NCBI GenBank assembly: GCA_965246945.1
Contig: CBDFFW010000001.1
Coordinates: 1,142,691 to 1,206,690 of the forward strand
DNA length: 64,000 bases
Direction of reading: 5' to 3'
Origin: Alphaproteobacteria bacterium
GTDB lineage: Bacteria > Pseudomonadota > Alphaproteobacteria > UBA11073
A model generated the notes under the pieces. That model was not told the DNA's origin, made no database searches, and saw only the letters and a list, made by a program, of their open reading frames with translations. Positions 9,937 to 63,520 of this stretch are shown one piece after another. Position numbers and translations under genes: made by a program. The number at the start of each line of letters is the position of its first letter. Within the stretch, counting starts at the first letter, position 1.

Positions 9937-10972
9937 TGTGAAACATCATACTTTCCAGCGTAATACCTGGGCCGAACGCCATGGCGCAGCCTAAACCGGT
10001 TTTTCCTTCTGCCAATATACGCTGCAATACGAACATCAGTGTGGCGGATGACATATTACCGTATTCACGTAGCACAGCGCGTGAATGATCGAGGGCAGCA
10101 GGCGGCAAATCCAAATTTTCGGCGATGGCGTCCAAAATCGAACGGCCACCTGGATGAATGGCCCAATGGGTTATTTCAGCTTGTAAGTGGCCATGCAAAA
10201 TATCCGGCAATATAGCTGGCAAATTTTTAGTAATCGTTGGCGGCACCTGGCCGGAAAGCACCATATTGAAACCGGCTTGGCCAATATGCCAGGTAATGTG
10301 CTGCGCGCTATCGGGCAGTAAAGCGGCATAAAAACTTTGCAGTTTAAGTCCCTGAGGTTTGGCCGAAATAATACTGGCGGCACAGCCATCGGCAAAAATT
10401 AAAAATGATAAGACGCTTTCCAGATCTGCCGTATCTTGCAAATGTAATGTGCATAATTCCAAATTAATTACCGCAACTTTTGCAGCAGGCGTTGAGCGTG
10501 TAATGTGATAGGCCAATTTCAGGGCGTTAATTGCTGCATAGCAACCCATAAAACCGATGATGCTACGCTCGGTTGTTGATGGTAAGCCGTAATGCTGAAT
10601 GATTTGCAGGTCCAGGCCAGGGGCATAAAAGCCGGTGCAGCTGGTAATAATTAGATGGGTGACATCTTCCAAATCCAGTTGATCCAATGCCATTGTTGCG
10701 AGCGAAAAAGCATGCTGTTCATAAAACTGCATACGCGCGGCGGTATCTGGAAAATTATCCTTTTGATAAAAATTATCTCCGTCTAGTTGCTGAGCATCTT
10801 TGCCTGGTGAAAAAAAAGAATAGCGGTGATCAATTTGCGCACGCGCGGCCATGCGGCCAAATAATTTTTGCTGTTTATCACTGGTTAACAAGCTTGGCGC
10901 GTATGCCACAAATTGTTGATGAATATCATGCGGTGGTACGGCTGTCGCAATTTGATTAATAAAAACACCCAT
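9929..10972 (-). CDS. Type III polyketide synthase (chalcone/stilbene synthase superfamily)
   Basis: 347 aa with a Cys-His-Asn triad in the expected contexts: ITSCTGFYAPGLD, WAIHPGGRSIL and YGNMSSATLMFVL. The C-terminal GFGPG-like loop reads AFGPGITLE. Confidence 0.9.
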   Translation of the reverse strand: MGVFINQIATAVPPHDIHQQFVAYAPSLLTSDKQQKLFGRMAARAQIDHRYSFFSPGKDAQQLDGDNFYQKDNFPDTAARMQFYEQHAFSLATMALDQLDLEDVTHLIITSCTGFYAPGLDLQIIQHYGLPSTTERSIIGFMGCYAAINALKLAYHITRSTPAAKVAVINLELCTLHLQDTADLESVLSFLIFADGCAASIISAKPQGLKLQSFYAALLPDSAQHITWHIGQAGFNMVLSGQVPPTITKNLPAILPDILHGHLQAEITHWAIHPGGRSILDAIAENLDLPPAALDHSRAVLREYGNMSSATLMFVLQRILAEGKTGLGCAMAFGPGITLESMMFHNA

Positions 10973-10978
10973 ATAAAT

Positions 10979-12529
10979 TTAGCCGACGATCCCTTTCACC
11001 TTGCCGCTGAGGTCGGCTAGGGAGTAAGGTTTGGGTAAGAAATAAATGCCGTCTTCTTCATCAATTGGCATATTGAGTTTATCTTCGGTATAGCCGGATA
11101 CAAATAACACTTTCAACGTTGGGTAAGTTTCGCGCAGCTTTAGGAATAGTTGTGGACCATCCAGGCCGGGCATAATGACATCGGTAATTAGCAATTGGAT
11201 GGTTGGAATGTTATCGCCAGTCATGATGTCAATGGCCGCTTCACCATGCGCAGCTTCGATGACTTCATAACCTTTTAGTTTGAGGGCGCGGGCGCTGAAT
11301 TGGCGCACGGCATCTTCATCTTCCACCAATAAAATCGTTCCGGCACCGGTTAAATCCTGGGCAGGTTTTGGGGCTTTTGCTTCCTTAACTACGGGCGCTT
11401 CTTCAATAGCGGTATGCTCGGGCAGATAAAGTGTAAAGGTGGTACCAATGCCCATTTCGCTTTGCACGCCAATTTGGCCGCCGGATTGCTGGACAATACC
11501 GTAAACCGTCGCCAGGCCTAAGCCGGTGCCTTGCCCCAATGGTTTGGTGGTAAAAAACGGTTCGAAAATGCGGGCGAGATTTTCGGAGGAAATGCCGGTG
11601 CCGGTATCTCGCACACTCACCGCTTGCCAGCGGCCGGCGGGCAGTGTGGTTTGCGGGCCAATGGTTTCGGTGGCATCGCTGATATGCTGAAAAGTTTTAA
11701 TTTGGAGCTGGCCGCCCTTCGGCATGGCATCGCGCGCATTAACCGCCAGGTTGATAATTGCTTGTTCTAATTGGGTATGGTCGGCAAAAACCAAACCCAC
11801 ATCGCGCGAGTAATCCAGATGCAACGTAACTTTTTCGCCCAGCAGGCGTTTTAATAGATGAGCAAGCTCGCCCACCACTTCGATCAGATCAACGGATTTG
11901 GGCTGCAGGGTTTGCTGGCGTGAAAAGGCCAGAATCTGCCGCACCAGATTGGCCCCGCGCGAGGCATTTTGTTTGATCTGCATAATATCGCCAAAGCTGG
12001 GATCGCCCGCTTTGTGCCGCAGGGCGAGCAGATCGCAAAAGCCAATAATGGCGGTAAGCAAATTATTGAAATCATGGGCGATGCCACCGGCCAACTGGCC
12101 AACCGCCTGCATTTTTTGGGATTGCGCCAGCTGATCATCGGTCATCACCAATGGCGCGGGGGGCGGCGCGGCCGCCTGGGCGGTAATCATCACCGCATTC
12201 GTAAAACCGGCGGGGCGGTACCAATGAAGTTGCAAGCGTTGCTGGCCATGGGCCGTGGCGAATTCACCGGAATAACTGCGCGGTTCCACCGGCATAATCT
12301 GGCCGCGCGGCCAAAACTGCTCCCAGCCTTCGCCAGGTAGTAATGATTGCAGCGGGATAGCTTCGCTGCCACGGCTGGAATTGCTAATGCCAATCAACTG
12401 TTCGGCTTGCCTATTTGCCACCAAAACCTGCCCATCTGAACTGGTAAGCCAGGCGGCGAATGGCAGGCCATTGCATAATTGCTGGAAAAGCTGGGCAGGA
12501 TCAATTTTGGCCGGCTTGCGTTTAAACAT
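10979..12529 (-). CDS. Soluble hybrid sensor histidine kinase/response regulator (PAS-HisKA-HATPase-REC), CckA-like catalytic core
   Basis: 516 aa with no TM segment and an N-terminal PAS-like region. The H-box is GGIAHDFNNLLTAIIGF, the N box NLAVNARDAM, and the G boxes DTGTGI and GTGLGLATVYG. The C-terminal receiver reads ILLVEDEDAVR...DVIMPGLDG...KP. Confidence 0.88.
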   Translation of the reverse strand: MFKRKPAKIDPAQLFQQLCNGLPFAAWLTSSDGQVLVANRQAEQLIGISNSSRGSEAIPLQSLLPGEGWEQFWPRGQIMPVEPRSYSGEFATAHGQQRLQLHWYRPAGFTNAVMITAQAAAPPPAPLVMTDDQLAQSQKMQAVGQLAGGIAHDFNNLLTAIIGFCDLLALRHKAGDPSFGDIMQIKQNASRGANLVRQILAFSRQQTLQPKSVDLIEVVGELAHLLKRLLGEKVTLHLDYSRDVGLVFADHTQLEQAIINLAVNARDAMPKGGQLQIKTFQHISDATETIGPQTTLPAGRWQAVSVRDTGTGISSENLARIFEPFFTTKPLGQGTGLGLATVYGIVQQSGGQIGVQSEMGIGTTFTLYLPEHTAIEEAPVVKEAKAPKPAQDLTGAGTILLVEDEDAVRQFSARALKLKGYEVIEAAHGEAAIDIMTGDNIPTIQLLITDVIMPGLDGPQLFLKLRETYPTLKVLFVSGYTEDKLNMPIDEEDGIYFLPKPYSLADLSGKVKGIVG

Positions 12530-14872: not shown

Positions 14873-14887
14873 TTGTTTGCACCAATT

Positions 14888-14987
14888 CCTCTCCCCTTAC
14901 GGGAGAGGGTAGAAACACTTAGCGAAACGAAGTTGAGCTTAGTGTTTGGGTGAGGGGTTGTTGGACTGCCCTTTATACCCCTCACCC
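14888..14987. repeat. Compound palindromic repeat (family A): hairpins CCTCTCCC/GGGAGAGG, AAACACTTAGC/GCTTAGTGTTT and GGGTGAGGGG/CCCCTCACCC
   Basis: Three consecutive stem-loops can be read directly in the tsf - glycosyltransferase intergenic region. Confidence 0.7.
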
Positions 14988-15014
14988 ATTTTCTAAATTC
15001 GCACGTTGTGCTCA

Positions 15015-16007
15015 TTAAGAAAATTTACCCTCTCCCACAAGGAGAGAGGGATTTTCCTTCACCACATTATCTTCCCAAAAAATTGCTTTTTTGATGGTTT
15101 CCCACACGGGGGTGACTTGTAGATCAGCCAAATTCGGTTGTTGCAATATTGCAGTCATGCGGCCAACGGGTTTTGAATGTTGGGGGTTCGATGCGCCGGA
15201 AAATAAGGTTAGGGTTGGGCAACCCAATTGCGCAATTAAATGCATGGGTCCGGTATCATTACCGACTGCAACATGCGCCAGACGCGCCAGTGCGGCAATC
15301 TGTTTAAAATCGGTTTTATTGGTGAGGTCAATGGCGTCTTCACATGCGTTGATAATCGCCTGGTTTACTTCGGCATCAGCGGCAGTACCTAATAATACGG
15401 GCTGGATTCCGGCAACAATTAACCGGCGGCAAATCGAAATATAATTTTCGACTGGCCATCTTTTTTCCGGTCGCGCAGGTGCCGAGCCAGCGATAATTAA
15501 TGCGATCCGCGGCGGCAATGGTGGCAATTCGCCGTCCAGCCAATGGTAATCGACCGGCACCAAATTGATGATGCCCGCTTTGATTAATTGCTGCCGCCGT
15601 GATTCCTTGGCATGCAATGCATCGCGTTCCTGACCAAAATAACGGTGGCTGGCACCCGCAACATTGCCGGACCATTCAGGTGGTTGGCTGGGCCAGAACA
15701 ATTTAAAATAAGTGCCACTGCGATCGCTGGTTTGCAGATCGTAAATACGGGTAAAATTGCCGCGCCGCAATTTTTTGCGTAATTCCCACCAAGCGCTTAA
15801 CTGCCAAAATTTTGGTTTTCGGTCGGTCCAGACATCATCAAACCAAGGGGCAGATTTAGCGAGTTCAGCTAACGGTTTGGCGGTTAATAATGTAATGCGG
15901 GCATCTGTATGATGCGCACGAATCGCAGCAAATGCTTCAGTGCATAACCAAAAATCACCGATGGCCGATAATTTAATGACTAAAATTTGTGGCTTTGCAG
16001 CGTTCAT
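15015..16007 (-). CDS. Glycosyltransferase family 9 (LPS heptosyltransferase-like)
   Basis: 330 aa with ILVIKLSAIGDF at the N-terminus and a C-terminal GNDTGPMHLIA motif typical of RfaC/RfaF-type enzymes. The last ~13 codons are encoded by a family A hairpin. Confidence 0.85.
   Translation of the reverse strand: MNAAKPQILVIKLSAIGDFWLCTEAFAAIRAHHTDARITLLTAKPLAELAKSAPWFDDVWTDRKPKFWQLSAWWELRKKLRRGNFTRIYDLQTSDRSGTYFKLFWPSQPPEWSGNVAGASHRYFGQERDALHAKESRRQQLIKAGIINLVPVDYHWLDGELPPLPPRIALIIAGSAPARPEKRWPVENYISICRRLIVAGIQPVLLGTAADAEVNQAIINACEDAIDLTNKTDFKQIAALARLAHVAVGNDTGPMHLIAQLGCPTLTLFSGASNPQHSKPVGRMTAILQQPNLADLQVTPVWETIKKAIFWEDNVVKENPSLLVGEGKFS
15028..15050. repeat. Family A hairpin (CCCTCTC-N9-GAGAGGG) inside the 3' end of the GT9 gene
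   Basis: Same motif as at 14888-14908. It encodes the terminal ...NPSLLVGEGKFS. Confidence 0.6.
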
Positions 16008-20716: not shown

Positions 20717-22162
20717 ATGGCCCCGCAGATACTTCACCGTAAATTGCCAGCGGATTTAACCACGCCGGTGCGTGCCTTTGCCCAATTGGCGGGCACTGAG
20801 CCATCATGTGCCTGCTTGTTCGAATCGGTTGAAGGCGGGGTGCAATTAGGCCGGTATTCGATCATCGCATTGAAACCCGACAAAATTTGGGAAGCGCGTG
20901 GACATAAAGTTAGTTGTCATTCTCAGCCCGCAGGGCTGGGAATCCAAAATGGAGAAGATGGATCCCCAACGCTACGTGTTGAGGACGACAACCCTTTGGC
21001 ATCCTTGGCCGCCTTTATCGCCGCAAGCCAATTGCCGCGTCAGCCGGAATTACCGCCCATTGGTGGAGGGATTTTCGGTTATCTGGGTTTTGATACGGTG
21101 CGGTGGTATGAACCAGTGCTCGGTGCGTTGCCGCCGCACCCATTCGGCCTGCCGGATGGCTTGTGGTTTCGCCCACAATTGATTGTGGTATTTGATAATG
21201 TACTGCAAGATTTGTGGTTGCTGGCCCCCACTTATGGCGAAGTTATCACGGCAGAAAAATTATTGGCCTGGGCCGAAGCACAATTAAAAACGGAGCCGCC
21301 GGATTTTTTAAATGAAGCTGCGGTGGCGACTGGCAGCATTACCCCTGGCGGTAATGAAACAGCGGTGCGTTATGGCCAGATGGTGGATCAGGCCAAAGAA
21401 TATATTGCGGCCGGCGATATATTTCAGGTAGTGCCATCGCAGCGTTATTCTGTGCCGTATGCGGCCGAACCGTTTCAATTATACCGTGCCGTGCGGCGAC
21501 ATAACCCAGCCCCATTTATGGTGTTTATGCGGCTGCCGGATGCCGCCATTGTCGCGGCCAGCCCTGAAGTATTGGTGCGTGTGCGCGATGGTGAGGTGGC
21601 AGTGCGGCCAATCGCGGGTACACGCCCGCGCGGTAAAACACCCATTGAAGATCAAGCATTAGCCGATGAACTGATAAATGATCCGAAGGAACGGGCGGAG
21701 CATATGATGCTGCTGGATTTGGGCCGCAACGATGTCGGCCGTGTGAGTGAAATTGGCAGTGTGAATGTCATCACTCAAATGGTCATCGAACGTTATGCGC
21801 ATGTGATGCATATTGTTTCCGAAGTACGTGGAAAACTGCGCAAAGGGTTAACCGCACTCGATGCATTAATGGCAGGTTTTCCGGCGGGTACAGTAAGCGG
21901 GGCACCAAAAATTCGGGCCATCCAAATCATTAATGAATTAGAAAAATCACCACGCGGTTTATATGGCGGCGGCATTGGTTATTTTAATGCTTTTGGGGAT
22001 TTGGATAGCTGCATCGCGCTGCGTACCGGCATTGTAAAAGATGGTATGTTGCACGTTCAAGCGGGCGGCGGCATTGTGGCCGATAGCGATCCCGTGGCTG
22101 AACATCAGGAATCGATGAATAAAGCGAAAGCCTTGTTGCGCGCCATTGGCGCTAATTTTTAA
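20717..22162 (+). CDS. Chorismate-binding enzyme, anthranilate synthase component I / aminodeoxychorismate synthase family (TrpE/PabB); carries an in-frame repeat insertion
   Basis: 481 aa with LFESVEGG...GRYSIIA at the N-terminus. The C-terminal catalytic block reads PSQRYS, AGTRPRG, ERAEHMMLLDLGRNDVGRV, GTVSGAPKIRA, RGLYGGGIGYF and GGGIVADSDP. TrpE and PabB cannot be distinguished by eye. Confidence 0.88.
   Translation: MAPQILHRKLPADLTTPVRAFAQLAGTEPSCACLFESVEGGVQLGRYSIIALKPDKIWEARGHKVSCHSQPAGLGIQNGEDGSPTLRVEDDNPLASLAAFIAASQLPRQPELPPIGGGIFGYLGFDTVRWYEPVLGALPPHPFGLPDGLWFRPQLIVVFDNVLQDLWLLAPTYGEVITAEKLLAWAEAQLKTEPPDFLNEAAVATGSITPGGNETAVRYGQMVDQAKEYIAAGDIFQVVPSQRYSVPYAAEPFQLYRAVRRHNPAPFMVFMRLPDAAIVAASPEVLVRVRDGEVAVRPIAGTRPRGKTPIEDQALADELINDPKERAEHMMLLDLGRNDVGRVSEIGSVNVITQMVIERYAHVMHIVSEVRGKLRKGLTALDALMAGFPAGTVSGAPKIRAIQIINELEKSPRGLYGGGIGYFNAFGDLDSCIALRTGIVKDGMLHVQAGGGIVADSDPVAEHQESMNKAKALLRAIGANF
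20916..20989. repeat. Palindromic element, family C (degenerate GTCATTCTC ... GAGGACGAC), in frame inside the TrpE/PabB gene
   Basis: It encodes ...SCHSQPAGLGIQNGEDGSPTLRVEDD... between conserved blocks. The termini and internal GGGAATCC/GGATCCCC boxes match the other family C copies. Confidence 0.6.
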
Positions 22163-23435
22163 CGATCTGTGCGTAAAAATATAAGGAACCAGTTGCCAGT
22201 AATATATTTTGGGTATCACCAATTGTTTTTTGCCACTCAGTTAAATTTGTATAACATGGCAGGGTGGGGGCGATACCCTGAATAGTTTTTTGTAATTCAT
22301 TAGCTGGCCAGGCATTGGGTTGTTCTGGCATATCGACGCAAATTACACTGTCTAAATATGGCAATAAATGCGATAAAAACATTTTTGGATCGCGGTTATT
22401 TAACATCGCGAAATATAAATGAATGGGCTGTGCTTTTTTCCACACCTGTAACTGCGCGGCCAATGCCATGGCACCACTTTCATTATGCGCGCCATCGAAC
22501 CATAAAGCAGTTGTTGACGGTAAGTTTGTCCATATCACGCCGCGTGTAATCTGCTCTAACCGCCCTGGCCAATAGGCGGTTTGTAAGCCTTGTTGGATGG
22601 CAGCAGTGGTAATCGCTGAATGGTGTAATTGCCTTAAACATTCAATGGCAACGCTGGCATTTATTTGTTGATGCGGTCCGACAAGGGCTAATTTATGCGT
22701 GTCATCCCAGTGCAAACTGGGATCTAGTCCTGCTTTTAAGTTAGCAAAATGATTTGTCTGTCTGGATCCCAGCTTACGCTGGGATGACGCTGATAGTAAC
22801 GAGCATCCTACCAACGCAGCCTGTGTTTCCAAAACAGCCATCACTTCTGGCGCTTGCGGTGCCACCGCGCATGGTATATTTGCTTTCATAATGCCGGCTT
22901 TTTCTAGCGCGATTTTGGTTAAGGTGTCTCCCAAAAATTCGGTATGATCAATACCAATTGGCGTGATGGCGGTGACGGCCGGTATTAGCACATTAGTAGC
23001 ATCCAACCGGCCGCCAAGGCCAACTTCCAACAGCAATAAATCAGCTGGTTGCTGGGCGAATAACCAAAACGCAGCGGCCGTTGTGCTTTCAAAAAAGGTA
23101 ATGGGATCACCAGCATTGATGGCAGTGACATGGCCTAATGCTGCGCATAATTCCGCATCGCTGACTTCCTGCCCTGCCAACACAATGCGTTCATTAAAAC
23201 GCACTAAATGCGGCGAGGTATAAATATGTGCCTTAAGCCCAGCTGCTTCAGCTATGCTGCGCATAAAAGCGATGGTTGAACCTTTACCATTGGTACCCGC
23301 CACATGAATGGTGGGCGGCATGCGCTGTTCTGGATTGCCCAATTTATCCAGTAACCGCTGCATACGTCCCAAAGACAGATCAATCTTTTTGGGATGCAGT
23401 AATTCCAGTTCTTTAAGCAAACTATTCAGCGGCAT
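22152..23435 (-). CDS. folC: Bifunctional folylpolyglutamate synthase / dihydrofolate synthase; carries an in-frame repeat insertion
   Basis: 427 aa with the P-loop HVAGTNGKGST, plus YTSPHLVRFNERI and GIDHTEFLG. Confidence 0.92.
   Translation of the reverse strand: MPLNSLLKELELLHPKKIDLSLGRMQRLLDKLGNPEQRMPPTIHVAGTNGKGSTIAFMRSIAEAAGLKAHIYTSPHLVRFNERIVLAGQEVSDAELCAALGHVTAINAGDPITFFESTTAAAFWLFAQQPADLLLLEVGLGGRLDATNVLIPAVTAITPIGIDHTEFLGDTLTKIALEKAGIMKANIPCAVAPQAPEVMAVLETQAALVGCSLLSASSQRKLGSRQTNHFANLKAGLDPSLHWDDTHKLALVGPHQQINASVAIECLRQLHHSAITTAAIQQGLQTAYWPGRLEQITRGVIWTNLPSTTALWFDGAHNESGAMALAAQLQVWKKAQPIHLYFAMLNNRDPKMFLSHLLPYLDSVICVDMPEQPNAWPANELQKTIQGIAPTLPCYTNLTEWQKTIGDTQNILLATGSLYFYAQIVKN
22701..22789. 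repeat. Palindromic element, family C (GTCATCCCAG..CTGGGATC ... GGATCCCAG..CTGGGATGAC), in frame inside folC
   Basis: Two terminal hairpins in inverted orientation can be read directly. The translated insert is ...SQRKLGSRQTNHFANLKAGLDPSLHWDD... Confidence 0.8.
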
Positions 23436-24489
23436 TGCTTTGTAAACCTAACCATAAATCCACCATTTCTTTGGTGGCAGCAACATCATGCACGCGCAGC
23501 AATTGCACGCCCTCACTGAGCGCATATTGGGCGGCGGCGACCGAGCCAATTGTGCGGTTTTTATATTCGACCACACCGGTTAGCGTACCAGTTATGCCTT
23601 TGCGTGAAATACCGAGCATCACACCCACGCCAAGGCCCTGATACAATGCAAGTTGCTGCATAATATCCAGATTATGTTGCAACGATTTACCAAAACCAAT
23701 GCCTGGGTCAATCACAATATCGGCGGGTTGCAAACCGCGCTCCAAGCACAATTGCACACGGTTAAACAAATAATCGTAAACTTCCAGGGCGGCATGTTCA
23801 TAATGCGGATTATTCTGCATTGTCACCGGCTCACCCTGTTTATGGGTGAGGATAACTGGCGTGCCGGTGCGGTGAATGAAATCAAGCGCGAGCGGATCAT
23901 CTTCCAGCGCGGAAACATCATTCACAATATGCGCACCGGCACCCATGGCGGCTTCCATCACCATCACGCGGCGCGTGTCGATACTGATTTTAGCACCGCG
24001 TGCGTTTACCAGGTCAGCAATGGCGCGAATAACTGGCACAACACGGCGAATTTCTTCTTCCACTTCCGGCGGCAAAGCCCCAGGGCGAGTACTTTCCCCG
24101 CCCACATCGATAATTTGTGCACCTTCATCCAGCATGGTTTGCGCTCGGGCGATAACGGCATCCAAATTGGCGTAATCACCACCATCAGAAAAACTATCGG
24201 GCGTGGCATTTAAAATGCCCATGATGATGGGTTTGTCTAACGATAAGCCGGCAAATGCACCGCGTGGGGCGCTGAATTTTTGTAATAGATTAGCGTGGTT
24301 TTGGGCCAACTGCTGAAGCGCTAAGGTATCAAAAAAATGGGATTGCAAACCATCCTCACTCCATTGTGTGCCGTAAGCATTGGTAAAAGCGATCGCATGA
24401 TTGGCCAATGGCCAAGCCTGCTGTGTCGCTACTAATGTTGCGGCCAATGGGCCTGACACCAAGCCGGTCGGAAGCAGATATTCTCGCAT
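23422..24489 (-). CDS. folP: Dihydropteroate synthase with an N-terminal extension of about 87 aa
   Basis: The pterin-binding domain IIMGILNATPDSFSDGG ... DVGGESTRPG ... NDVSAL ... DPGIGFGK begins about 88 residues after the MREYLL start (ATG 24489), which lies 1 nt after the folK stop. Confidence 0.92.
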   Translation of the reverse strand: MREYLLPTGLVSGPLAATLVATQQAWPLANHAIAFTNAYGTQWSEDGLQSHFFDTLALQQLAQNHANLLQKFSAPRGAFAGLSLDKPIIMGILNATPDSFSDGGDYANLDAVIARAQTMLDEGAQIIDVGGESTRPGALPPEVEEEIRRVVPVIRAIADLVNARGAKISIDTRRVMVMEAAMGAGAHIVNDVSALEDDPLALDFIHRTGTPVILTHKQGEPVTMQNNPHYEHAALEVYDYLFNRVQLCLERGLQPADIVIDPGIGFGKSLQHNLDIMQQLALYQGLGVGVMLGISRKGITGTLTGVVEYKNRTIGSVAAAQYALSEGVQLLRVHDVAATKEMVDLWLGLQSNAAE

Positions 24490-24490
24490 G

Positions 24491-25348
24491 CTATATTTTT
24501 TGAATATTAGTGCAATCCGCGCAAGCGGCAATTAGTTGCTTAATTGTTTGGCCCTTTTGGGGGTGCTGCCATTCGGGCGCAATATCGTGCAACGGCAGTA
24601 GGACAAAAGCCCGCTCCGCCAAATAGGGATGCGGGACAGTGAGCATTTCATTTTGGATAATTTTATTGCCCCAGGCAATGATATCGATATCCAAAGTGCG
24701 GGAGGCATTTTTAACACTGCGCTGCCGCCCGAATTGTGTTTCGATAGCAATGATCGCTTCCATTACTTCAGCGGGTAAAAGCACTGTTTTAACGGCTACC
24801 ACGGCATTAATGTAATCCGGTTGTTCCATGCCGAGCCAGGGCGGTGATTGGTAAAAAGGAGAAACGGTTTGCACGTGAATATTATGCTGTGGCAACACGG
24901 CAATTGCCTGCTCCAGCGTGGCAACGGGAAGCTGGTTTTGCCAAGGCAAATTCGCGCCTAATCCTAAATATATTACCCCTTTGTCATCCCGGGCTTGTCC
25001 CGGGATCCATGCCGAAGCTTGCTTGAGCTTTGGCTCAAAATTGCTAAGCTGAATTTCAATTAAATTCTCAGCCAAATCTTGCCAGGATGGATTTTGCTTT
25101 TCGATTAAGTTATATTTATACTCACGCTTATAATGCTTAATTTGTTTTTCACGATGGATAGCCTGATCAATATAGTTGAAAACTTCATAGTAAACTAATT
25201 GATTGAGGCTATATTTTTTAGTAAATCCTTCAATCTGCTTTTGTTTATGCGCCCTAATCCGTTGTTCAAGATTACTAGTTACCCCTGTATAAAGTGTGCC
25301 ATATTTTTTGTTTGTTAAAATATAAACGAAATATTCATGATTTTTCAT
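24491..25348 (-). CDS. folK: Single 285-codon ORF fusing an N-terminal GIY-YIG nuclease domain (residues ~1-97) to HPPK/FolK (residues ~125-285) through repeat-encoded linker codons
   Basis: The N-terminal part FVYILTNKKYGTLYTGVTSNLEQRIRAH...YYE is a YhbQ/UPF0213-type GIY-YIG domain. The C-terminal part IYLGLGANLPW...RTLDIDII...VPHPYLAERAFVLLPL is 2-amino-4-hydroxy-6-hydroxymethyldihydropteridine diphosphokinase. No ATG, GTG or TTG lies near the start of the FolK domain; the codons there are AAA GGG GTA ATA TAT TTA. Confidence 0.8.
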   Translation of the reverse strand: MKNHEYFVYILTNKKYGTLYTGVTSNLEQRIRAHKQKQIEGFTKKYSLNQLVYYEVFNYIDQAIHREKQIKHYKREYKYNLIEKQNPSWQDLAENLIEIQLSNFEPKLKQASAWIPGQARDDKGVIYLGLGANLPWQNQLPVATLEQAIAVLPQHNIHVQTVSPFYQSPPWLGMEQPDYINAVVAVKTVLLPAEVMEAIIAIETQFGRQRSVKNASRTLDIDIIAWGNKIIQNEMLTVPHPYLAERAFVLLPLHDIAPEWQHPQKGQTIKQLIAACADCTNIQKI

Positions 25349-25384
25349 TTGTCACCGCAGATCCCGGGACAAGCCCGGGATGAC
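24983..25384 (-). mobile_element. Candidate autonomous family C element: GIY-YIG ORF bracketed by perfect 25-bp terminal inverted repeats
   Basis: GTCATCCCGGGCTTGTCCCGGGATC at 24983-25007 is the exact reverse complement of GATCCCGGGACAAGCCCGGGATGAC at 25360-25384. The same TTGTCATCC.../...GGATGACAA termini end the short family C elements. The segment is AT-richer than folK. Confidence 0.6.
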
Positions 25385-25417
25385 AATAGAAAAATCAAAT
25401 GAAAAGTGCAAATAAAG

Positions 25418-25572
25418 CCAGGTGGGCGATGGATATTGATTATCCCTGCGGCCCTTGATTAAGGTGGGCGCCGTATGTCTGCAGCCACGGCCACAGCCAG
25501 GAACAGCTCCCTTGCAGTGATACGAGTATCGGCTCGGGGGATGAATGCATCCTGTCGCGCCACCCAGCCATG
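25418..25572 (-). ncRNA. ssrS: Probable 6S RNA (ssrS)
   Basis: A non-coding stretch of about 155 nt lies immediately downstream of zapA, the conserved proteobacterial zapA-ssrS synteny. The 5' end (GGGUGGCGCGACAGGAUGCAUUCAUCCC) and 3' end (GGGAUAAUCAAUAUCCAUCGCCCACC) can form a long, interrupted closing helix around a GC-rich central region. The ends are approximate. Confidence 0.55.
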
Positions 25573-25578
25573 AATAGT

Positions 25579-33764: not shown

Positions 33765-36700
33765 TTATGCAGCCGTTGTCACTTGCCCAACCACACTTGC
33801 GCAGCGCTGGCACAAGCAATCAGTGACTTCGGGCAAAACCTTCCAACAGCGTTCGCATTTATTGCCTTCTGTCACTTTAGTAACATCTGTTTGCCACTGT
33901 CCAATATCGCTTGTGTAATTATCCAAAATGTCTAGTTGCGATATAATACAAATGTCTTTAAACTCAAATTTCTGCAAAATAGCCTTTTCATTTGAGGATT
34001 TTACGTGAACTGCAACTTTCAGCTCTAATGAAGAGCCGATTAATTTTTGTGCTCTCATTTGCTCGGCATTTTGTGTCACGCTACTTCTTATGTTTTTGAC
34101 AAATTCCCATTCATCGGCGAGCGCTTGGTTTTGCCAAGCAGTCGACAGCGTAGGCAATAAACGCAGATGCACGGATTGTACAGTGCTTTTATGCGGGTAT
34201 TGCTGCCAGGCTTCTTCGGCGGTGAAGCAGATGAAGGGGGCGAGCCAGGCGGTGAGACATTCGAAAACCTGGATCATCACAGCTTGCGTGGCGATGCGCG
34301 CAGGATCATCAGCGGCATCACAATATAAGCGGTCTTTGCGGATATCGAAAAACAGGGCGGAAAGGTCTTGAGCACAGAAGTCATGCAGGTCTTTTAACAA
34401 TGCATTAAGCTGATTTAATTTAGCAGGATCGCCGACCGTATTGTGCACGGCTTCGCCGAGTTCATAAAGGCGATGTAATACCCATTGTTCGAGTTGCGGC
34501 AGTTCAGCAATCGTTTTCGCATCGGTTAAATCCAATGCTTTGGCAGCTTCAGAGTTATACAAAGCACCGAGTAGATAGCGCAACGTGTTGCGCAAGCGGC
34601 GGTACAAATCGGCTTGTTGATTCAAGATTTCTTTGCTGATGCGGACATCTTCCTGGTAATCGGAATTGCACACCCACAGCCGCAAAATATCGGCGCCCGA
34701 TTGATCGGTCACCTGCTGCGGGGCGACGACATTGCCTAATGATTTGGACATTTTGCGACCTTGTTCATCCAGCACAAACCCGTGGGTTAATACGGCTTTA
34801 AATGGCGCGCGGCCGCGCGTGCCGCAGCTTTCCAGCAACGAAGATTGGAACCAGCCACGATGCTGGTCGGACCCTTCGAGATATAAATCGGCGGGCGATT
34901 GCAGTTCGGGGCGGTCTTCCAGCACAAAGGCATGCGTGGAACCCGATTCAAACCAAACATCAACGATATCGAAAATTTGCTCGTAATTTTCGGCTTGATA
35001 TTGGTCGCCTAAAAAATCTTGTGCGGGGCGAGCATACCAGGCATCGCTGCCTTCGGTTTTAAAAATTTCAACGATGCGGTTGCACACCGCTTCATCGCGC
35101 AGCGGCTGGCCGGTCTGCCGGTCGACAAAAATCGCAATCGGCACGCCCCAGGCGCGCTGGCGGCTGATACACCAATCCGGCCGGCTTTCCACCATTGCGC
35201 GAATACGGTTTTCACCCGCTGGCGGTACCCATTGGGTATTAGATATCGCTTGTAGAGCAACTTGTCGTAATGTTTTACCAACGGCCTCATCCTGAGGAGC
35301 GTTTGCAGAACGCGTCTCGAAGGATACTCCAGCTGAATCCCCAAGTTTAATATCCTTCGAGACGCCGCGCTGCGGCTCCTCAGGATGAGGTTGGGTGAAA
35401 GATATATCCATCGCAATGAACCATTGGGGCGTGGTGCGGAAAATTAGTGGCGCTTTGGAACGCCAGGAATGCGGGTAGGAGTGGCGCAACTGTCCGCGCG
35501 CAACGAGGTTTCCGGCTGCTTGCAATGCAGCCACTACGCGCTTATTGGCATCACCCTTTTTGCCATCGGGATTATAAACCCGTGCGCCTTCAAAGCCTGG
35601 GGCCTGGCTGGTGTAAACACCTTTGCCATCGACAGTTAGTGGGATTGGAAGGTCATGCTGCTTACCTAAATTAAAATCGTCCAAGCCATGCGATGGCGCG
35701 ATATGGACGAAGCCGGTCCCGGCATCATCAGTGACGAATTCAGCAGGGAGGAGTGGAACTTCAAATTGATAATTATTAACGTCATCCCAGCGAAAGCTGG
35801 GATCCAAGCCTGCTTCTAAGCTAGAATTTTGGTGCCGGTCTGAATTCCCGCTTTCGCGGGAATGACGCGGAGAGAGACCGCGCAATGGGTGAGAACAAAC
35901 TGTGCCAGCAAGCTCGCTACCTTTGAAGTCACTTTCCAACACCCAATCGGTAATTTGGGCGGCAGTTTTTACCTGCTCGCTTAATGCTTTGGCGACCGCA
36001 TAGCGTGTACCAGCTTTCACCATGCTGCCATCGGCCACGGCATTCACGCGGTATACGGCGTAATCAAAATCTTCACCATAAGCGATGGCGCGGTTGGCTG
36101 GCATGGTCCAGGGGGTGGTGGTCCAGATGATGATGGAAGCGCCTTGCAGGGCTGGCAAGTTACTTTTTGATACTGGGAACGCAACATGCACGGTATCGGA
36201 AGTCAGTTCGTGGTATTCAATTTCGGCATCGGCCAGGGCGGTTTGTTCGACGACCGACCACATGACCGAGCGTTCGCCGCGATACAGCAAGCCATTTAAC
36301 AAGAATTTGTGGATCTCGGCAGCGATGCGCGCTTCGGCGGGTAAAGTCATCGTTAGATAAGGCTTGGCCCAATTGCCGATAATGCCCAGGCGCTGAAATT
36401 CGGCGGATTGAATTTTAACCCATTCGGCGGCAAAGGCGCGGCATTCGGCGCGGAAATCGAGGATCGGTATATCGTCTTTATTCTGTTTTTTGGCGCGGTA
36501 TTTTTCTTCGATTTTCCATTCAATCGGTAGGCCATGGCAATCCCAACCCGGGACATAGGCAATGCGTTTGCCGAGCATGGCCTGCGCGCGGCTCACGACA
36601 TCTTTCAAAATTTTATTGGTCGCATGGCCGATATGGATATTGCCATTGGCATAGGGCGGGCCATCATGCAGCACATAGGTCGCGGCGGCGCGGTTACGAA

Positions 36701-36824
36701 ACTGCCCGGCCAGATCAATCTCCTGCCAGAACTTTAACCATTCCGGCTCCTTGTTCGGCAAATTTCCGCGCATGGGAAAGTCAGTCTGCGGCAGGATGAC
36801 CGTGTCTTTATAATCAGTTGTCAT
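33765..36824 (-). CDS. ileS: Isoleucine--tRNA ligase; carries two in-frame palindromic-element insertions
   Basis: 1019 aa with HIGH (PYANGNIHIGH), KMSKS (RKMSKSLGN), a CP1 editing region and a C-terminal zinc finger CERCW...CLCQRC. Confidence 0.96.
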   Translation of the reverse strand: MTTDYKDTVILPQTDFPMRGNLPNKEPEWLKFWQEIDLAGQFRNRAAATYVLHDGPPYANGNIHIGHATNKILKDVVSRAQAMLGKRIAYVPGWDCHGLPIEWKIEEKYRAKKQNKDDIPILDFRAECRAFAAEWVKIQSAEFQRLGIIGNWAKPYLTMTLPAEARIAAEIHKFLLNGLLYRGERSVMWSVVEQTALADAEIEYHELTSDTVHVAFPVSKSNLPALQGASIIIWTTTPWTMPANRAIAYGEDFDYAVYRVNAVADGSMVKAGTRYAVAKALSEQVKTAAQITDWVLESDFKGSELAGTVCSHPLRGLSPRHSRESGNSDRHQNSSLEAGLDPSFRWDDVNNYQFEVPLLPAEFVTDDAGTGFVHIAPSHGLDDFNLGKQHDLPIPLTVDGKGVYTSQAPGFEGARVYNPDGKKGDANKRVVAALQAAGNLVARGQLRHSYPHSWRSKAPLIFRTTPQWFIAMDISFTQPHPEEPQRGVSKDIKLGDSAGVSFETRSANAPQDEAVGKTLRQVALQAISNTQWVPPAGENRIRAMVESRPDWCISRQRAWGVPIAIFVDRQTGQPLRDEAVCNRIVEIFKTEGSDAWYARPAQDFLGDQYQAENYEQIFDIVDVWFESGSTHAFVLEDRPELQSPADLYLEGSDQHRGWFQSSLLESCGTRGRAPFKAVLTHGFVLDEQGRKMSKSLGNVVAPQQVTDQSGADILRLWVCNSDYQEDVRISKEILNQQADLYRRLRNTLRYLLGALYNSEAAKALDLTDAKTIAELPQLEQWVLHRLYELGEAVHNTVGDPAKLNQLNALLKDLHDFCAQDLSALFFDIRKDRLYCDAADDPARIATQAVMIQVFECLTAWLAPFICFTAEEAWQQYPHKSTVQSVHLRLLPTLSTAWQNQALADEWEFVKNIRSSVTQNAEQMRAQKLIGSSLELKVAVHVKSSNEKAILQKFEFKDICIISQLDILDNYTSDIGQWQTDVTKVTEGNKCERCWKVLPEVTDCLCQRCASVVGQVTTAA
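35285..35390. repeat. Family B palindromic element in frame inside ileS
   Basis: CCTCATCCTGAGGAGC...GCTCCTCAGGATGAGG with an inner GTCTCGAAGGATA/TATCCTTCGAGAC pair. The translated insert is ...PHPEEPQRGVSKDIKLGDSAGVSFETRSANAPQDEA... Confidence 0.8.
35781..35866. repeat. Family C palindromic element in frame inside ileS
   Basis: GTCATCCCAGCGAAAGCTGGGATCC ... GAATTCCCGCTTTCGCGGGAATGAC. The translated insert ...SPRHSRESGNSDRHQNSSLEAGLDPSFRWDD... shares AGLDPS(F/L)(R/H)WDD with the folC insert. Confidence 0.8.
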
Positions 36825-40050: not shown

Positions 40051-40100
40051 ACCGCAATCAGCCTAGCAAAGATTCGAGAGGGGGCGATGATTGTTTACTT

Positions 40101-40126
40101 GTCATCCCAGCGCAGGCCGGGATGAC
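40101..40126. repeat. Solo family C hairpin (GTCATCCCAGCGCAGGCCGGGATGAC)
   Basis: It has the same TTGTCATCCC / GGGATGACAA termini as the longer copies and lies between the giant ORF and flhA. Confidence 0.65.
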
Positions 40127-40134
40127 AATAAAAA

Positions 40135-43100
40135 TTATGCAACTGCTTTTACGGTCGGCAATTGCTGGTGATCTAACGCCGCTGCCAAATAGCTGTAAAG
40201 CTTGCCAATATCTGAAGTCATTAAGGTGGAGGCGAGTAAATCAGCCGTGTCCAACTGTAATGCTTGCCCGAATAACTCCTCAAACTGGCGCAGATATTTC
40301 ATGACCGCACCACGGAAATCGGCATTTTGCCAGTATTTTTCGCGGATTTTTTGGGCCGGAATATCGTCTTTAATGCCAACCAAACGTCTGGTAAAGGTGC
40401 CCAAATCGCCTTTGGCAATCGCTTGCCAATCCTGGTTGGGGCCAATGGGGTCTAAGGCTTTGGTGAGATCGATTGACAGGCTGTGCAAACCTTCAATCAC
40501 CTGTTTGGCATTGTTCAAAAAGACTTCACGGCGGCTGCGGGTTTCTTGATTTTGCAGTTTCTCCGTTTGGCTGACTGCTTCCTGGGTAACTACCTGCATT
40601 TCGCTCAGTTGACGACCAAGTAATTCGACCAAGCCTTGGCCGCGTTGGTTGGCCGTATTCATGGCTTTCAAGGTTTGATCGGCTTGCTGCACCAATGATT
40701 GACCGGCTTGCAGCAACACAGTTTGGGCGGCCGCAACGGCTGATTTAATGCTATCAACCTGTGTATTTAATTGCGTGCCGGTTTGCTGCAATTGGCCGGC
40801 GGCTTGCTGTTGTTGCTGCTGCAAACCTTGCCATTGCTGCTGGGCCGCTTGACCTGCTTGCGCCATGGCTTGCAGATTTTGCTGCGTGCCCTGGACCATT
40901 TGTTGTTGAGTCTGGCCTAGTTTAACCTGCTGTTGGTTAAATTCACCCACTGTGGTTTGCGCCGTTTGGGCCAATTGCTGCGCCATTTGGCGGAGCTGTT
41001 CCACTTCGGCCATCACTGTACTGCGGGCTTGCTGGCTATGGCTGCTGACGGCATCTAATTGTTGCTGTTGCAAGGCGCTGGCGGCCTGCATGGTCTGACT
41101 AATTTGCGCACCCTGTTTGGAGACAATTTGCGCTTGGTCCATTAAGTGCTGCGCGGCATGCGCAATCTGTGCCGTGGTTTCTGTGGCGGTGGCCAGCACT
41201 TCCTGGCTGGTTTGGCTGAGTTGTTGTTTGATGCCGTAAACCTTTTGGATGGCTTGATCGGTAATTAACCCCATATCCACGCCGGTGCTCTGCATTTGCT
41301 GTTCAACGGCATATAATTGCTGTTGGGTCGCTTGCGCGCGGGCGGTAATATCCTGATGGATTTGCTGTGCTTGCTGCTGCAATTGGGTTAATTGCTCGAT
41401 ATTAGAGTTACTGCCACTGGCCATGGCTTGATACGCATTTTGCAAGCTGCGGGATAATTCACCTAATTCATCATGGGTACGGAAGGCCAGGGAAGAGACT
41501 TCCAAGCCCATTTCGCGCATATGGTCGATCGCAGTTTGGTAGATTTGAGTGGCAGCGGTTCCACGCTCCATCAAACTTTGGGTTTCTTGGGCAGCCACAC
41601 GGGCCACATGCTGCAGCGCTGCAGTACCGCTGATGGCTTGGCTTTGTAAGGCTGCGGTTTGCTCGGCGGCAATATCAGCGGCTTTGCGGATGGTGGCGGT
41701 GGTTTGTTCGCCGGTTTGTTCAATTTTATTGCCGGCACCATCTAATAAATCGGCCAACCAAATAATATCCTTAGCACTGCGATCGGTAAGTAATGAAATT
41801 TCACTGCCTTCAGTTTTCAGCATTTGCATTGATTGATTTAGCTGCTGCAATAACTGTTGATGATCAGCGCCCAGGGTTTGGTTAAACTGACGGTAATTCG
41901 CCAGCGCTTCATCACTTTGTTGCGCAACCTGGCCGGCAGCGACGGCGATTTCCTGGCTTTGCTGACGCAAGCCGGTTTGCAATGAATGTGCATCGGCGAC
42001 CAAGCGTCCAGCGCTTTCATCCAATTGCGCCACCCCTTCGTCAACACTTTGCGTTAAAGTGGCTGCGGCTGCCTTGGCCACTTCGCCCACATTTTTAAAT
42101 TGATCTAACCGTTCGGTTGAACTGCTAATCACATCGCCTAATTCGGTTTTCAAGCTATGGATCGCCTGGCCAAAACCGCCTAATTGTGTGGATAGACTGC
42201 CTTGGGCTTGGTCCAATGTTTTAGTGGCATGTTCCAACACAGCCCGCTCGGCGCGCATATCTTGGGTAATATCCCGCAGATGCTGCACGTTGCTGGCACC
42301 AGCGGTGTAAAGATCCGCGCCTTCGCGCGTTAATTCGCCAAGCATGTTTTCCAGCATGCTCATCGCGCCGCTTAGCTCTTCACGCAATTGGGCGGTATCG
42401 CGGCCCAGAGTCTGGCTGATAATTTCGCTTTGCACGCGGGCGGCCGCCGTGGCTTCCACCAAATCACCGGCCATGCGTTCAACATTCGTGCCGACTTTAT
42501 CCGCGTGGTACGACATTTGATCATGCAGGCCGCGGGCCAGACCGATATGGTTCACCATTTGTGCCTGAAAGTGCTGATTTTGTTCGGCAGCAATGTCGGA
42601 AGCATCCCGCATATCAATGATGCGCTGCGCGACTGAGGCATTCAGTTGCATAATGCGTTCAACCGTGCGGTCGGTCGCTTGGCGCGCGACGACGGATAGG
42701 CCTTCAATCGTGCCAGCCAATTCGCCATGGAAATCTTTAAGATCTTTTTGGGCAGTTTGCGCTGACTCGGTGAAGCCATCGCGCAGGCCATGTAACTGAC
42801 CAGCCAGCGTGCCAACTGCTTGCCGCACAGTATTGGCCGCTTGATCGCCCATGCTGTTGGCGATGCGATCCAGGCTTTGCAGTGATTGGCCCAATTGATC
42901 TTCAATGGCCGCAATTTGCTGGCGCGTGGCTTGGCCCGTTTGCGCAAAACGCATTTCGATGTTCAGCAACTGGCGGGTTACCTCGTTCATGATCTCTTTG
43001 ATCATGTCCGGAGTGGTGGAAGCCGCGTCGGCCAAACGCTCTTGCAGTGTGATTAAGCGGCTTTCAAATTGCTGGTCAAACCCTTGAATTTGGGTAAGGG

Positions 43101-57722: not shown

Positions 57723-57727
57723 ATTTT

Positions 57728-57806
57728 GTCATCCTCAATCGACCAACGAGAAGCTGGAGATCCATATCTCAATTATGTGGATCCCCGCGCTGTGCGCGAG
57801 GATGAC
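57728..57806. repeat. Family C palindromic element immediately after the nrdA stop
   Basis: GTCATCCTCAATCGACC...GGAGATCC ... GGATCCCCGCGCTGTGCGCGAGGATGAC with TTGTCATCC / GGATGACAA termini. Confidence 0.7.
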
Positions 57807-58132
57807 AACAAAGAGTAATTTGTATATTTAAGATTTAATGAAACTCATTACCGATAACCAAGGCCGTGTTATTGCGCTGAGCAATTTCCTGTTCCCGCCC
57901 TGGCAAATAAGTTACCGCAATTATTTTTAAAAGATCTACTAACTATTCCGATTGGTTTGATCTTCATTTGTGTATTTATGCGTAGTTTTCTGCCAGTGCA
58001 TATCAGCATTTGGCCAGATTTTTCGGTGGTGACCCATGTCTCGCACTATAGTGATAAGACAAATGCTTATTTGATTATTTTAGACAAGGCGGCTTTTCAA
58101 AATGCGACGGCTCAACAGGGCACTAAAAAATT

Positions 58133-63408: not shown

Positions 63409-63483
63409 ACCTCATCTTGAGCTTGTCGAAGGATGCTCCAGCTAACATCCAAGTTAAGCATCCTTCGACAAGCTCAGGATGAG
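63409..63483. repeat. Full family B palindromic element (75 bp) between aroB and tilS
   Basis: CCTCATCTTGAGCTTGTCGAAGGATGC ... GCATCCTTCGACAAGCTCAGGATGAGG. The right arm is identical to 47601-47632. Confidence 0.8.
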
Positions 63484-63520
63484 GAAAGTTAGAATATCTA
63501 CTGTTTTTTGGCTATCATTT

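Follow-up and report, generated by a model that had tools for sequence, protein, structure and literature searches.

How a nuclease gene framed by inverted repeats comes to be joined, without an intervening stop codon, to the folate gene folK is the question raised by a 64,000-nucleotide stretch of contig CBDFFW010000001.1 (hereafter, the window) from an alphaproteobacterium of the lineage UBA11073. On the minus strand of the window, a single open reading frame (ORF) begins with a GIY-YIG nuclease domain set between two copies of a hairpin-forming repeat and continues into FolK. The most probable answer, to which we assign a probability of roughly 0.8, is that the repeat-bounded segment of 406 bp belongs to the Ssn family as an SRM-ssn-SRM cassette, that is, a GIY-YIG gene lying between two inverted recognition hairpins. 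The association of nuclease and hairpins was the main idea of the original prediction made from this sequence, and it is correct, but it had already been published in 2025 (PMC11893778). The window copy is a new and divergent member of the Ssn/SRM group, and what sets it apart locally is a single trait, its continuation in frame into a folK devoid of its own start codon.

The inverted repeat that bounds the cassette consists of two arms of 27 nucleotides, 352 nucleotides apart and 100% complementary, and is the longest in the window among spans within 1.5 kb. The repeats originally described are present, and each extends outwards by 2 nucleotides more than had been given. The stem of each arm matches in both orientations because the arm is itself a hairpin (ATCCCGGG / CTTGT loop / CCCGGGAT) with an 8-bp stem and a 5-nucleotide loop; the opposite polarity of the two arms is set by the loop and the flanking TTGTC...C, not by the stem. 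As single strands the arms are predicted to fold with -9 kcal/mol (z -3.2 and -3.9). The segment between them has the nuclease ORF as its sole gene, in keeping with the earlier description, and no second GIY-YIG ORF is found in the 64-kb window. The GC content of the interior is 0.29-0.36, versus 0.48 for the window, and the cassette lies 15 points under its surroundings, which suggests a foreign origin. The outer flanks read tttttcta and aggggtaa, and no target-site duplication is seen at them.

The nuclease domain matches PF01541 (GIY-YIG) at residues 6-80 of the ORF with an E-value of 3.8e-13, and about 8000 homologues of it are present in the protein collection. Among the homologues listed, nearly all are free-standing proteins of about 95-97 residues from many phyla, with at most 63% identity to the window copy; nearly all of the 120 listed fall between 93 and 122 residues, and three of them (P0004, P0044 and P0057) add a match to T5orf172 (PF10544). 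An alignment of 31 proteins (A1) contains 15 invariant residues, every one of which is kept in the window nuclease. These include Y9, Y20 and E67, which stand 11 and 47 residues apart, just as do Y6, Y17 and E64, the catalytic residues mutated in Neisseria meningitidis SsnA (PMC11893778). Ssn-like proteins score 113-130 bits against the window nuclease among those listed, compared with 29.5 bits (E 8.9e-06) for the UPF0213 structure 1zg2, and the label 'YhbQ-type' first attached to the domain is accordingly imprecise. UPF0213 proteins have the superfamily fold in common with the nuclease and are of similar size, but assignment to the UPF0213/YhbQ subfamily was rejected, as 1zg2 is a distant match and no NCBIfam equivalog matched the nuclease. 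The same hairpins accompany close homologues in Sphingomonadaceae, Rickettsiales and Legionella, which speaks indirectly for a place in the Ssn clade.

As defined by Chenal et al. (Nat Commun 2025), the Ssn family comprises GIY-YIG proteins with one domain and about 94 residues, corresponding to CDD cd10448 (PMC11893778). N. meningitidis SsnA and three homologues were found to bind their own hairpin solely as single-stranded DNA, on one strand, and the tested enzymes cut a few nucleotides upstream (5') of it (PMC11893778). The Neisseria hairpin, NTS (CGTCATTCCCGCGMAVGCGGGAATCYRG), is a superset of dRS3 and was generalised to a degenerate pattern, SRM, which lies near 71% of Ssn homologues and on both sides in 42%; such hairpins typically flank the ssn gene and also lie scattered across the genome, and SRM-rich genomes include Rickettsia and Wolbachia (PMC11893778). 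The 3 nucleotides before the palindrome are critical for cutting and the C after it for binding, and the role demonstrated in Neisseria is the restriction of incoming single-stranded DNA in transformation (PMC11893778).

We searched the window with the SRM pattern HGTCWYN(0-2)YYVSBRHN(0-5)WNVSBRGN(0-2)RNCYNB, taking 100 shuffles as background. Five matches were returned against a mean of 0.13 expected, namely both cassette arms, pointing inward, and three arms of short elements elsewhere in the window. In the cassette hairpins the palindrome is preceded by GTC and followed by C. The locus resembles that of SsnA (NMV_0044/NMB0047) in the size of its GIY-YIG domain (about 95 residues) and the Tyr/Tyr/Glu spacing, in the hairpin-gene-hairpin layout with inverted SRM on both flanks, and in the further hairpin copies scattered nearby. 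It differs in that the nuclease lacks a stop codon and is continuous in frame with FolK, so that the ORF runs on into a full HPPK domain where an Ssn protein would end; this departure from the single-domain form stems from the missing stop codon, not from another type of nuclease domain. The nearby hairpins also differ in placement, three of the window elements being inside genes versus 2% of NTS copies in N. meningitidis (PMC11893778). Identity to the homologues listed is at most 63%, and the window enzyme is presumed active by analogy. Literature searches for GIY-YIG with miniature inverted-repeat transposable elements or palindromic elements, and for Rickettsia palindromic elements (RPEs) with a nuclease, returned nothing relevant.

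The same architecture recurs around homologues of the nuclease. In 80 homologue loci (L001-L080), drawn from contigs of one genome per species, an inverted repeat of at least 10 nucleotides spans the ssn gene in 59, and many of these repeats take the form TGTCATTCC-stem-loop-stem-GGAATCCA. Arms reading (T)GTCAT(T/C)CC-stem-loop-stem-GG(A/G)ATCC occur in Flavobacteriia, Nitrospirae, Dehalococcoidia, Ignavibacteria and Alpha- and Gammaproteobacteria. Strict SRM matches lie on both sides of the gene in 20 of the 80 loci, and a looser detector (GTCWY followed by a hairpin) places inward-facing hairpins on both sides in 51, versus 3 of 327 random control positions in the same loci. This recurrence supports the view that nuclease gene and hairpin termini form one unit. 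The repeat-bounded units around homologues measure 345-580 bp, a range that includes the window unit, and among the homologue loci, 24 share the layout with arms 17 nucleotides or longer; no target-site duplication was found in any of these 24 units. Some homologues also carry the repeat in their protein sequence. The C-terminal tails of P0051 (..WIPSQAGNDKL) and P0329 (..AWIPAFAGMTK) are their own hairpin translated in the frame used in the window, and the tails or leaders WIPAFAGMT, CHSGLDPES and GFPDQVGE in P0329, P0302, P0051 and P0048 are SRM hairpin translations. Where such SRM-derived peptide motifs occur, the repeat has been read through or a start mis-called.

By analogy with the four tested homologues, the window enzyme would bind the hairpin as single-stranded DNA, solely on the strand that reads GTCAT-stem-loop-stem-C, and would cut a few nucleotides 5' of it. 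As the arms face inward, cleavage is predicted just beyond each end of the cassette, with the two cuts on opposite strands. The other hairpins of the window, whether single or in inward pairs, three of them in ileS, folC and a pabB-like gene, would be further substrates, comparable to the NTS/dRS3 repeats of Neisseria. The putatively foreign cassette lies between the 6S RNA gene and folK, with its end 4 nucleotides from the position of the FolK start-Met codon. With no stop after the nuclease, and with the hairpin in the frame seen in some homologues, the ORF continues into folK, where the codon at the Met position is now GTA.

The short elements were listed originally as five sequences sharing their termini with the cassette, and all five are present (Table 1). 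Allowing at most 1 mismatch, TTGTCATCC occurs 26 times in the window versus 13.9 +/- 3.9 times in shuffled sequence, and no shuffle reached 26. The elements are lone hairpins or inward SRM pairs with spacers of about 20-45 nucleotides; GTCATYCC and GGRATC are constant among copies, and the inner stem bases vary with pairing kept. In folC, whose translation includes the insert, SRM matches lie at 22700 (+) and 22762 (-) and the element folds with a z of -6.0. The insert of 33 residues in IleS is absent in 14 of 14 aligned IleS homologues, which is evidence at the protein level that short elements do insert.

In tolerating palindromic inserts in frame within housekeeping genes (here ileS, folC and the pabB-like gene), the window resembles the genomes that carry RPEs, for which in-frame inserts of 80-150 bp in housekeeping genes have been reviewed (PMC10969869). 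The likeness rests on insertion behaviour; the host is not a Rickettsia, and its best IleS and FolK matches are to Rhodospirillales-like alphaproteobacteria at about 50% identity. A second parallel is with the dRS3 repeats and NIMEs of Neisseria, in which short spacers lie between inverted hairpins of the ATTCCC-N8-GGGAAT type; about half of dRS3 copies are NTS, i.e. SsnA recognition sites (PMC11893778). NIMEs are intergenic, whereas several hairpin pairs of the window lie in frame within essential genes.

Two other kinds of inverted repeat were observed in the window. Copies of a second palindromic family, bounded by CCTCATCYTGAG...CTCAGGATGAGG, lie at 35280-35390 (in ileS) and 63410-63484 (intergenic); the ileS copy encodes PHPEEPQRGVSKD...SFETRSANAPQDE, and a similar insert is found at the same position of the IleS homologue P0427, encoded on a 3.4-Mb contig. 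A third inverted-repeat element, at 14884-15053, has arms of 28 nucleotides that are 86% complementary (AATTCCTCTCCCCTTACGGGAGAGGGTA ...) and 114 nucleotides apart, each arm being a hairpin.

The short elements bear directly on whether the cassette is an active, autonomous transposon mobilised by its own GIY-YIG nuclease, with the RPE-like elements as deleted, non-autonomous derivatives, much as REPINs relate to RAYTs. We consider this doubtful. The terminal inverted hairpins do delimit a unit whose size is constant from phylum to phylum, the short elements have the same termini, the IleS insert attests to insertion, and the low GC of the cassette would fit. A mobile-element hypothesis is also floated in the published work, where NTS-ssnA-NTS is compared with an insertion sequence and with the REP/RAYT pairing (PMC11893778). 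Beyond the hairpin, one copy alone hints at the proposal that the short elements are internally deleted derivatives: subterminal regions of the long element resemble the interior of the ileS element (p = 0.003, uncorrected, in 1 of 24 tests), a similarity that fails correction for the 24 tests, and the interiors of the other three of the four short elements tested have none. Descent of the short elements by deletion is therefore weakly indicated at best.

The chemistry of the enzyme also speaks to mobility. GIY-YIG enzymes hydrolyse DNA without a covalent intermediate, and we know of no strand-joining activity among them; from what is known of the superfamily they are unable to join strands alone, so that any mobilisation would need host functions. 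This sets the Ssn units apart from the REP/REPIN-RAYT (TnpA-REP) and IS200/IS605 systems, in which RAYT/TnpA, enzymes of the HUH Y1 type, bind DNA covalently through a 5'-phosphotyrosine link and rejoin strands. The resemblance is otherwise close: one enzyme gene is framed by hairpin repeats found genome-wide, and hairpin recognition in single-stranded DNA and the lack of target-site duplication are as for the Ssn units. The absence of a target-site duplication and of a second copy in the window counts against an active transposon, although some transposon families likewise leave no target-site duplication.

Copies of ssn that are duplicated or differ in context were found among the homologue loci. 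In L005 (Flavivirga, 9940-11380) three hairpin-ssn-hairpin units lie in tandem, the third ssn copy with an in-frame stop, and in L069 (9900-11000) there are two; the copies are 96-97% identical. Since the duplicated unit includes sequence outside the repeats, the copies arose by tandem duplication, for which unequal recombination is favoured over transposition. The identical Ssn protein P0024 stands beside different neighbours, which would be expected of a mobile unit, but the differences trace to hairpin arrays of variable make-up, with no clean element ends at the breakpoints. Upstream of the identical P0024 gene, in L093 (1-2500) and L094-L102, lie tandem paired-hairpin units of about 95 bp (GTGTCATTGCGAGGCAC...GGAATGACAGATTA), and their copy number differs among the metagenome contigs (L093-L102). 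Identical copies of P0113 and of P0024 do occur in varying contexts, but this was rejected as an argument for mobility: the breakpoints lie in variable hairpin arrays. Finally, the sole demonstrated role of an Ssn enzyme is restriction of single-stranded DNA taken up in transformation (PMC11893778), which also weighs against the transposon.

A bolder form of the idea would make SRM-ssn-SRM units the smallest autonomous mobile elements of bacteria (about 350-450 bp), moving through single-stranded DNA intermediates without target-site duplication, with paired hairpins, including the RPE-like inserts, as non-autonomous passengers. One such unit would have landed 4 nucleotides from the folK start, which has since been lost, so that FolK would be made only as a fusion and the element would be locked in place. 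We regard this as improbable.

At the other extreme, the cassette could be a long-resident, domesticated host gene, its hairpins acting as regulatory or self-recognition sites and its adjacency to folK being ancestral. This is the least probable of the accounts considered. Domestication has been proposed in Neisseria and other symbionts (PMC11893778), and the nuclease retains every conserved residue. A regulatory role of the hairpin is conceivable, as the one beside the start codon forms part of a larger structure that could regulate translation: a longer palindrome (25338-25405) surrounds the 5' hairpin of the cassette and pairs the ribosome-binding-site region and start codon of ssn with sequence outside the cassette (-20.6 kcal/mol, z -6.45; alignment p 0.03). 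This palindrome was rejected as a feature of the Ssn family, since p was 0.05 or below in 1 of 59 loci; it may be a local inverted duplication or chance. The difference in GC content from the surroundings and the identity of the 27-nucleotide arms, which argues for recent origin or homogenisation, also tell against long residence. Moreover, the cassette parts folK from the sequence formerly ahead of its start, and the FolK homologues examined are free-standing.

We return to the cassette of the Ssn family and to its junction with folK. The HPPK domain is complete (PF01288, profile positions 1-116 of 116, E 1.4e-33; TIGR01498 folK, 126.5 bits), and in an alignment with FolK homologues (A2) all 24 invariant residues are kept. 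The homologues start MIYLGLGANLP and the window sequence reads VIYLGLGANLP, with the codon GTA, 4 nucleotides from the end of the hairpin, in place of the start codon. No in-frame ATG, GTG or TTG is present from codon 93 to codon 133; the nearest are codon 92 (TTG, 25075) and codon 134 (TTG, 24949), the latter past the conserved GxGxN motif and N-terminal strand of FolK. The earlier reading of the frame through the left repeat into FolK, with no canonical start nearby, stands. Most nuclease homologues stop at about residues 95-100 (alignment A1). As the window copy has no stop there, translation from the ssn ATG would continue through the linker into FolK, giving a protein that would contain KQASAWIPGQARDDKGVIYLG.

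In our preferred reading, to which we give an even chance, FolK is made in this way, as the C-terminal half of a 285-residue Ssn-FolK protein. Given the gene order ssrS-cassette-folK, cassette and folK are probably transcribed by read-through from ssrS. That HPPK tolerates an N-terminal domain of such a size is seen in natural FolB-FolK fusions, in which a domain of about 125 residues likewise precedes HPPK (P0281, 291 residues, HPPK at 129-255); the partner there is a folate enzyme, whereas in the window it is a repeat-associated nuclease. No Ssn-FolK fusion was found among 1.84 billion representative proteins, the best score (137 bits) being to FolK alone. The sole hit matching in two stretches, P0242, was rejected as a chimeric artefact carrying SEEHTSELQSR... 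All FolK homologues aligned are free-standing, and nearly all of the 120 listed consist of 150-192 residues with HPPK only. The best of them have at most 50% identity, and the context of P0123 (AFG1 - folK - gcrA) is not syntenic with the window.

Routes to a FolK that is not fused, taken together, are somewhat less probable than an even chance. Translation could start at an ATG in the end of the hairpin (24985-24987), provided that the G run truly holds five G or that the ribosome slips by -1, or at a near-cognate GTA or ATA at 24971-24978. The mini-ORF that begins at the hairpin ATG is shifted by one base from the folK frame and holds both A_AAG_GGG (24976-24982), a heptamer that fits X_XXY_YYZ before a stop, and the run of four G (24976-24979). 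Either a fifth G in the run or a -1 slip on this heptamer would yield MTKGVIYLGLGAN. For the near-cognate start, GTA stands exactly at the Met position of the homologues, several of which have 2-5 extra N-terminal residues. That no second Ssn-FolK fusion is known favours either route. Several points reduce their appeal: the hairpin ATG has no Shine-Dalgarno sequence and is inside the hairpin stem; AAGGGG, 0-2 nucleotides from GTA/ATA, is too near to serve either; GTA is not recognised as a start codon; and the slippery site is pattern matching on one sequence. There is also no further sign of indel errors in the window, whose coding fraction of 0.89 and intact long ORFs give no indication of a frameshift-prone assembly. 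The remaining possibility, beside fusion and these alternatives, is that folK is a decaying gene.

Some considerations weigh against identifying the locus as an Ssn cassette that expresses folK as a fusion. Assignment of the window protein to Ssn draws on sequence and hairpins, and the Ssn enzymes have been described as small, single-domain monomers (PMC11893778); in a fusion of 285 residues the nuclease or the kinase activity, or both, might suffer. Translation of the fusion would also be limited by the strong local palindrome described above, which encloses the ssn start codon. As no other Ssn-FolK fusion was found, the arrangement is a one-off and could reflect an assembly error or a decaying gene. 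Lastly, insertion of the cassette is deduced from its composition and position; no close relative was found in the collections, where neither the fused protein nor ZapA has an exact counterpart.

The features of the locus are collected in Table 1. The minus strand carries, in order, zapA (25890-25579), the 6S RNA gene ssrS, the cassette, folK, folP and folC, and the pabB-like gene adjoins folC on the opposite strand. The ssrS gene is directly downstream of zapA and ends 24 nucleotides upstream of the cassette. The hairpin was considered as an intrinsic terminator of the 6S RNA and rejected, since no T-run follows it and no terminator is predicted there on the minus strand. The folP ORF (23422-24531, -), taken from its first listed start, has an N-terminal extension of about 90 residues and shares 41 nucleotides with the 3' end of folK; an ATG at codon 15 (MREYLL...) is an alternative candidate start. 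Further away, a 1428-residue ORF at 40135-44421 (-) adjoins flhA and has no Pfam match at E <= 1e-5.

Table 1. Coordinates of the cassette, the fused ORF and the related features within the window.
Feature	Position	Strand	Remarks
SRM-ssn-SRM cassette (probable)	24981-25386	-	406 bp, low GC, between 6S RNA gene and folK; ends are the 27-nucleotide repeats
Left arm of inverted repeat	24981-25007		TTGTCATCCCGGGCTTGTCCCGGGATC
Right arm of inverted repeat	25360-25386		reverse complement of left arm
5' SRM hairpin	25357-25386	-	read on - as TTGTCATCCCGGGCTTGTCCCGGGATCTGC; GTC before 8-bp stem, C after; SRM match 25357-25385; z -3.9
3' SRM hairpin, inverted	24981-25010	+	SRM match 24982-25010; folds; translated WIPGQARDDK in the ORF
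Ssn-FolK ORF	24491-25348	-	285 residues; GIY-YIG at 6-80, HPPK at 127-258
ssn, GIY-YIG nuclease domain (residues 1-97)	25058-25348	-	PF01541, homologues, invariant residues
Read-through linker (residues 98-123)	24982-25057	-	stop codon of homologues absent here
folK (HPPK) domain (residues 124-285)	24491-24981	-	GTA 24976-24978 at start-Met position of homologues
Out-of-frame mini-ORF ATG ACA AAG GGG TAA	24973-24987	-	four codons; ATG in hairpin end (GGATGACAA)
6S RNA gene ssrS, complete	25411-25573	-	RF00013, 51.8 bits versus gathering 46.4, model 1-187/187
Paired-hairpin element in pabB-like gene (ORF 20717-22162, +)	20914-20991		in frame; gene identified by Chorismate_bind domain
Paired SRM element in folC (ORF 22152-23435, -)	22701-22788		inward hairpins, 42-nucleotide spacer, in frame
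Paired SRM element in ileS (ORF 33765-36824, -)	35781-35866		in frame, 33-residue insert LSPRHSRESGNSDRHQNSSLEAGLDPSFRWDDV
Single 30-nucleotide palindromic SRM	40099-40128		intergenic; GTCATCCC... on both strands; -11 kcal/mol, z -5.5
Paired-hairpin element directly after ribonucleotide reductase gene	57726-57808		SRM match 57777-57807 (-)

The pattern of nuclease and hairpins is strong enough to be seen by eye in raw sequence, and its presence here extends the Ssn/SRM association to a deep-branching alphaproteobacterium that has no close relative in public collections. Beyond the published work, the window contributes the in-frame junction with folK and the in-frame hairpin pairs in ileS, folC and the pabB-like gene. 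The latter tie the SRM hairpins to the question of what spreads RPE-like elements. The fusion, if true, would be a natural test of how far Ssn tolerates a C-terminal partner, and would make an essential folate gene of the host dependent on a repeat-associated cassette.

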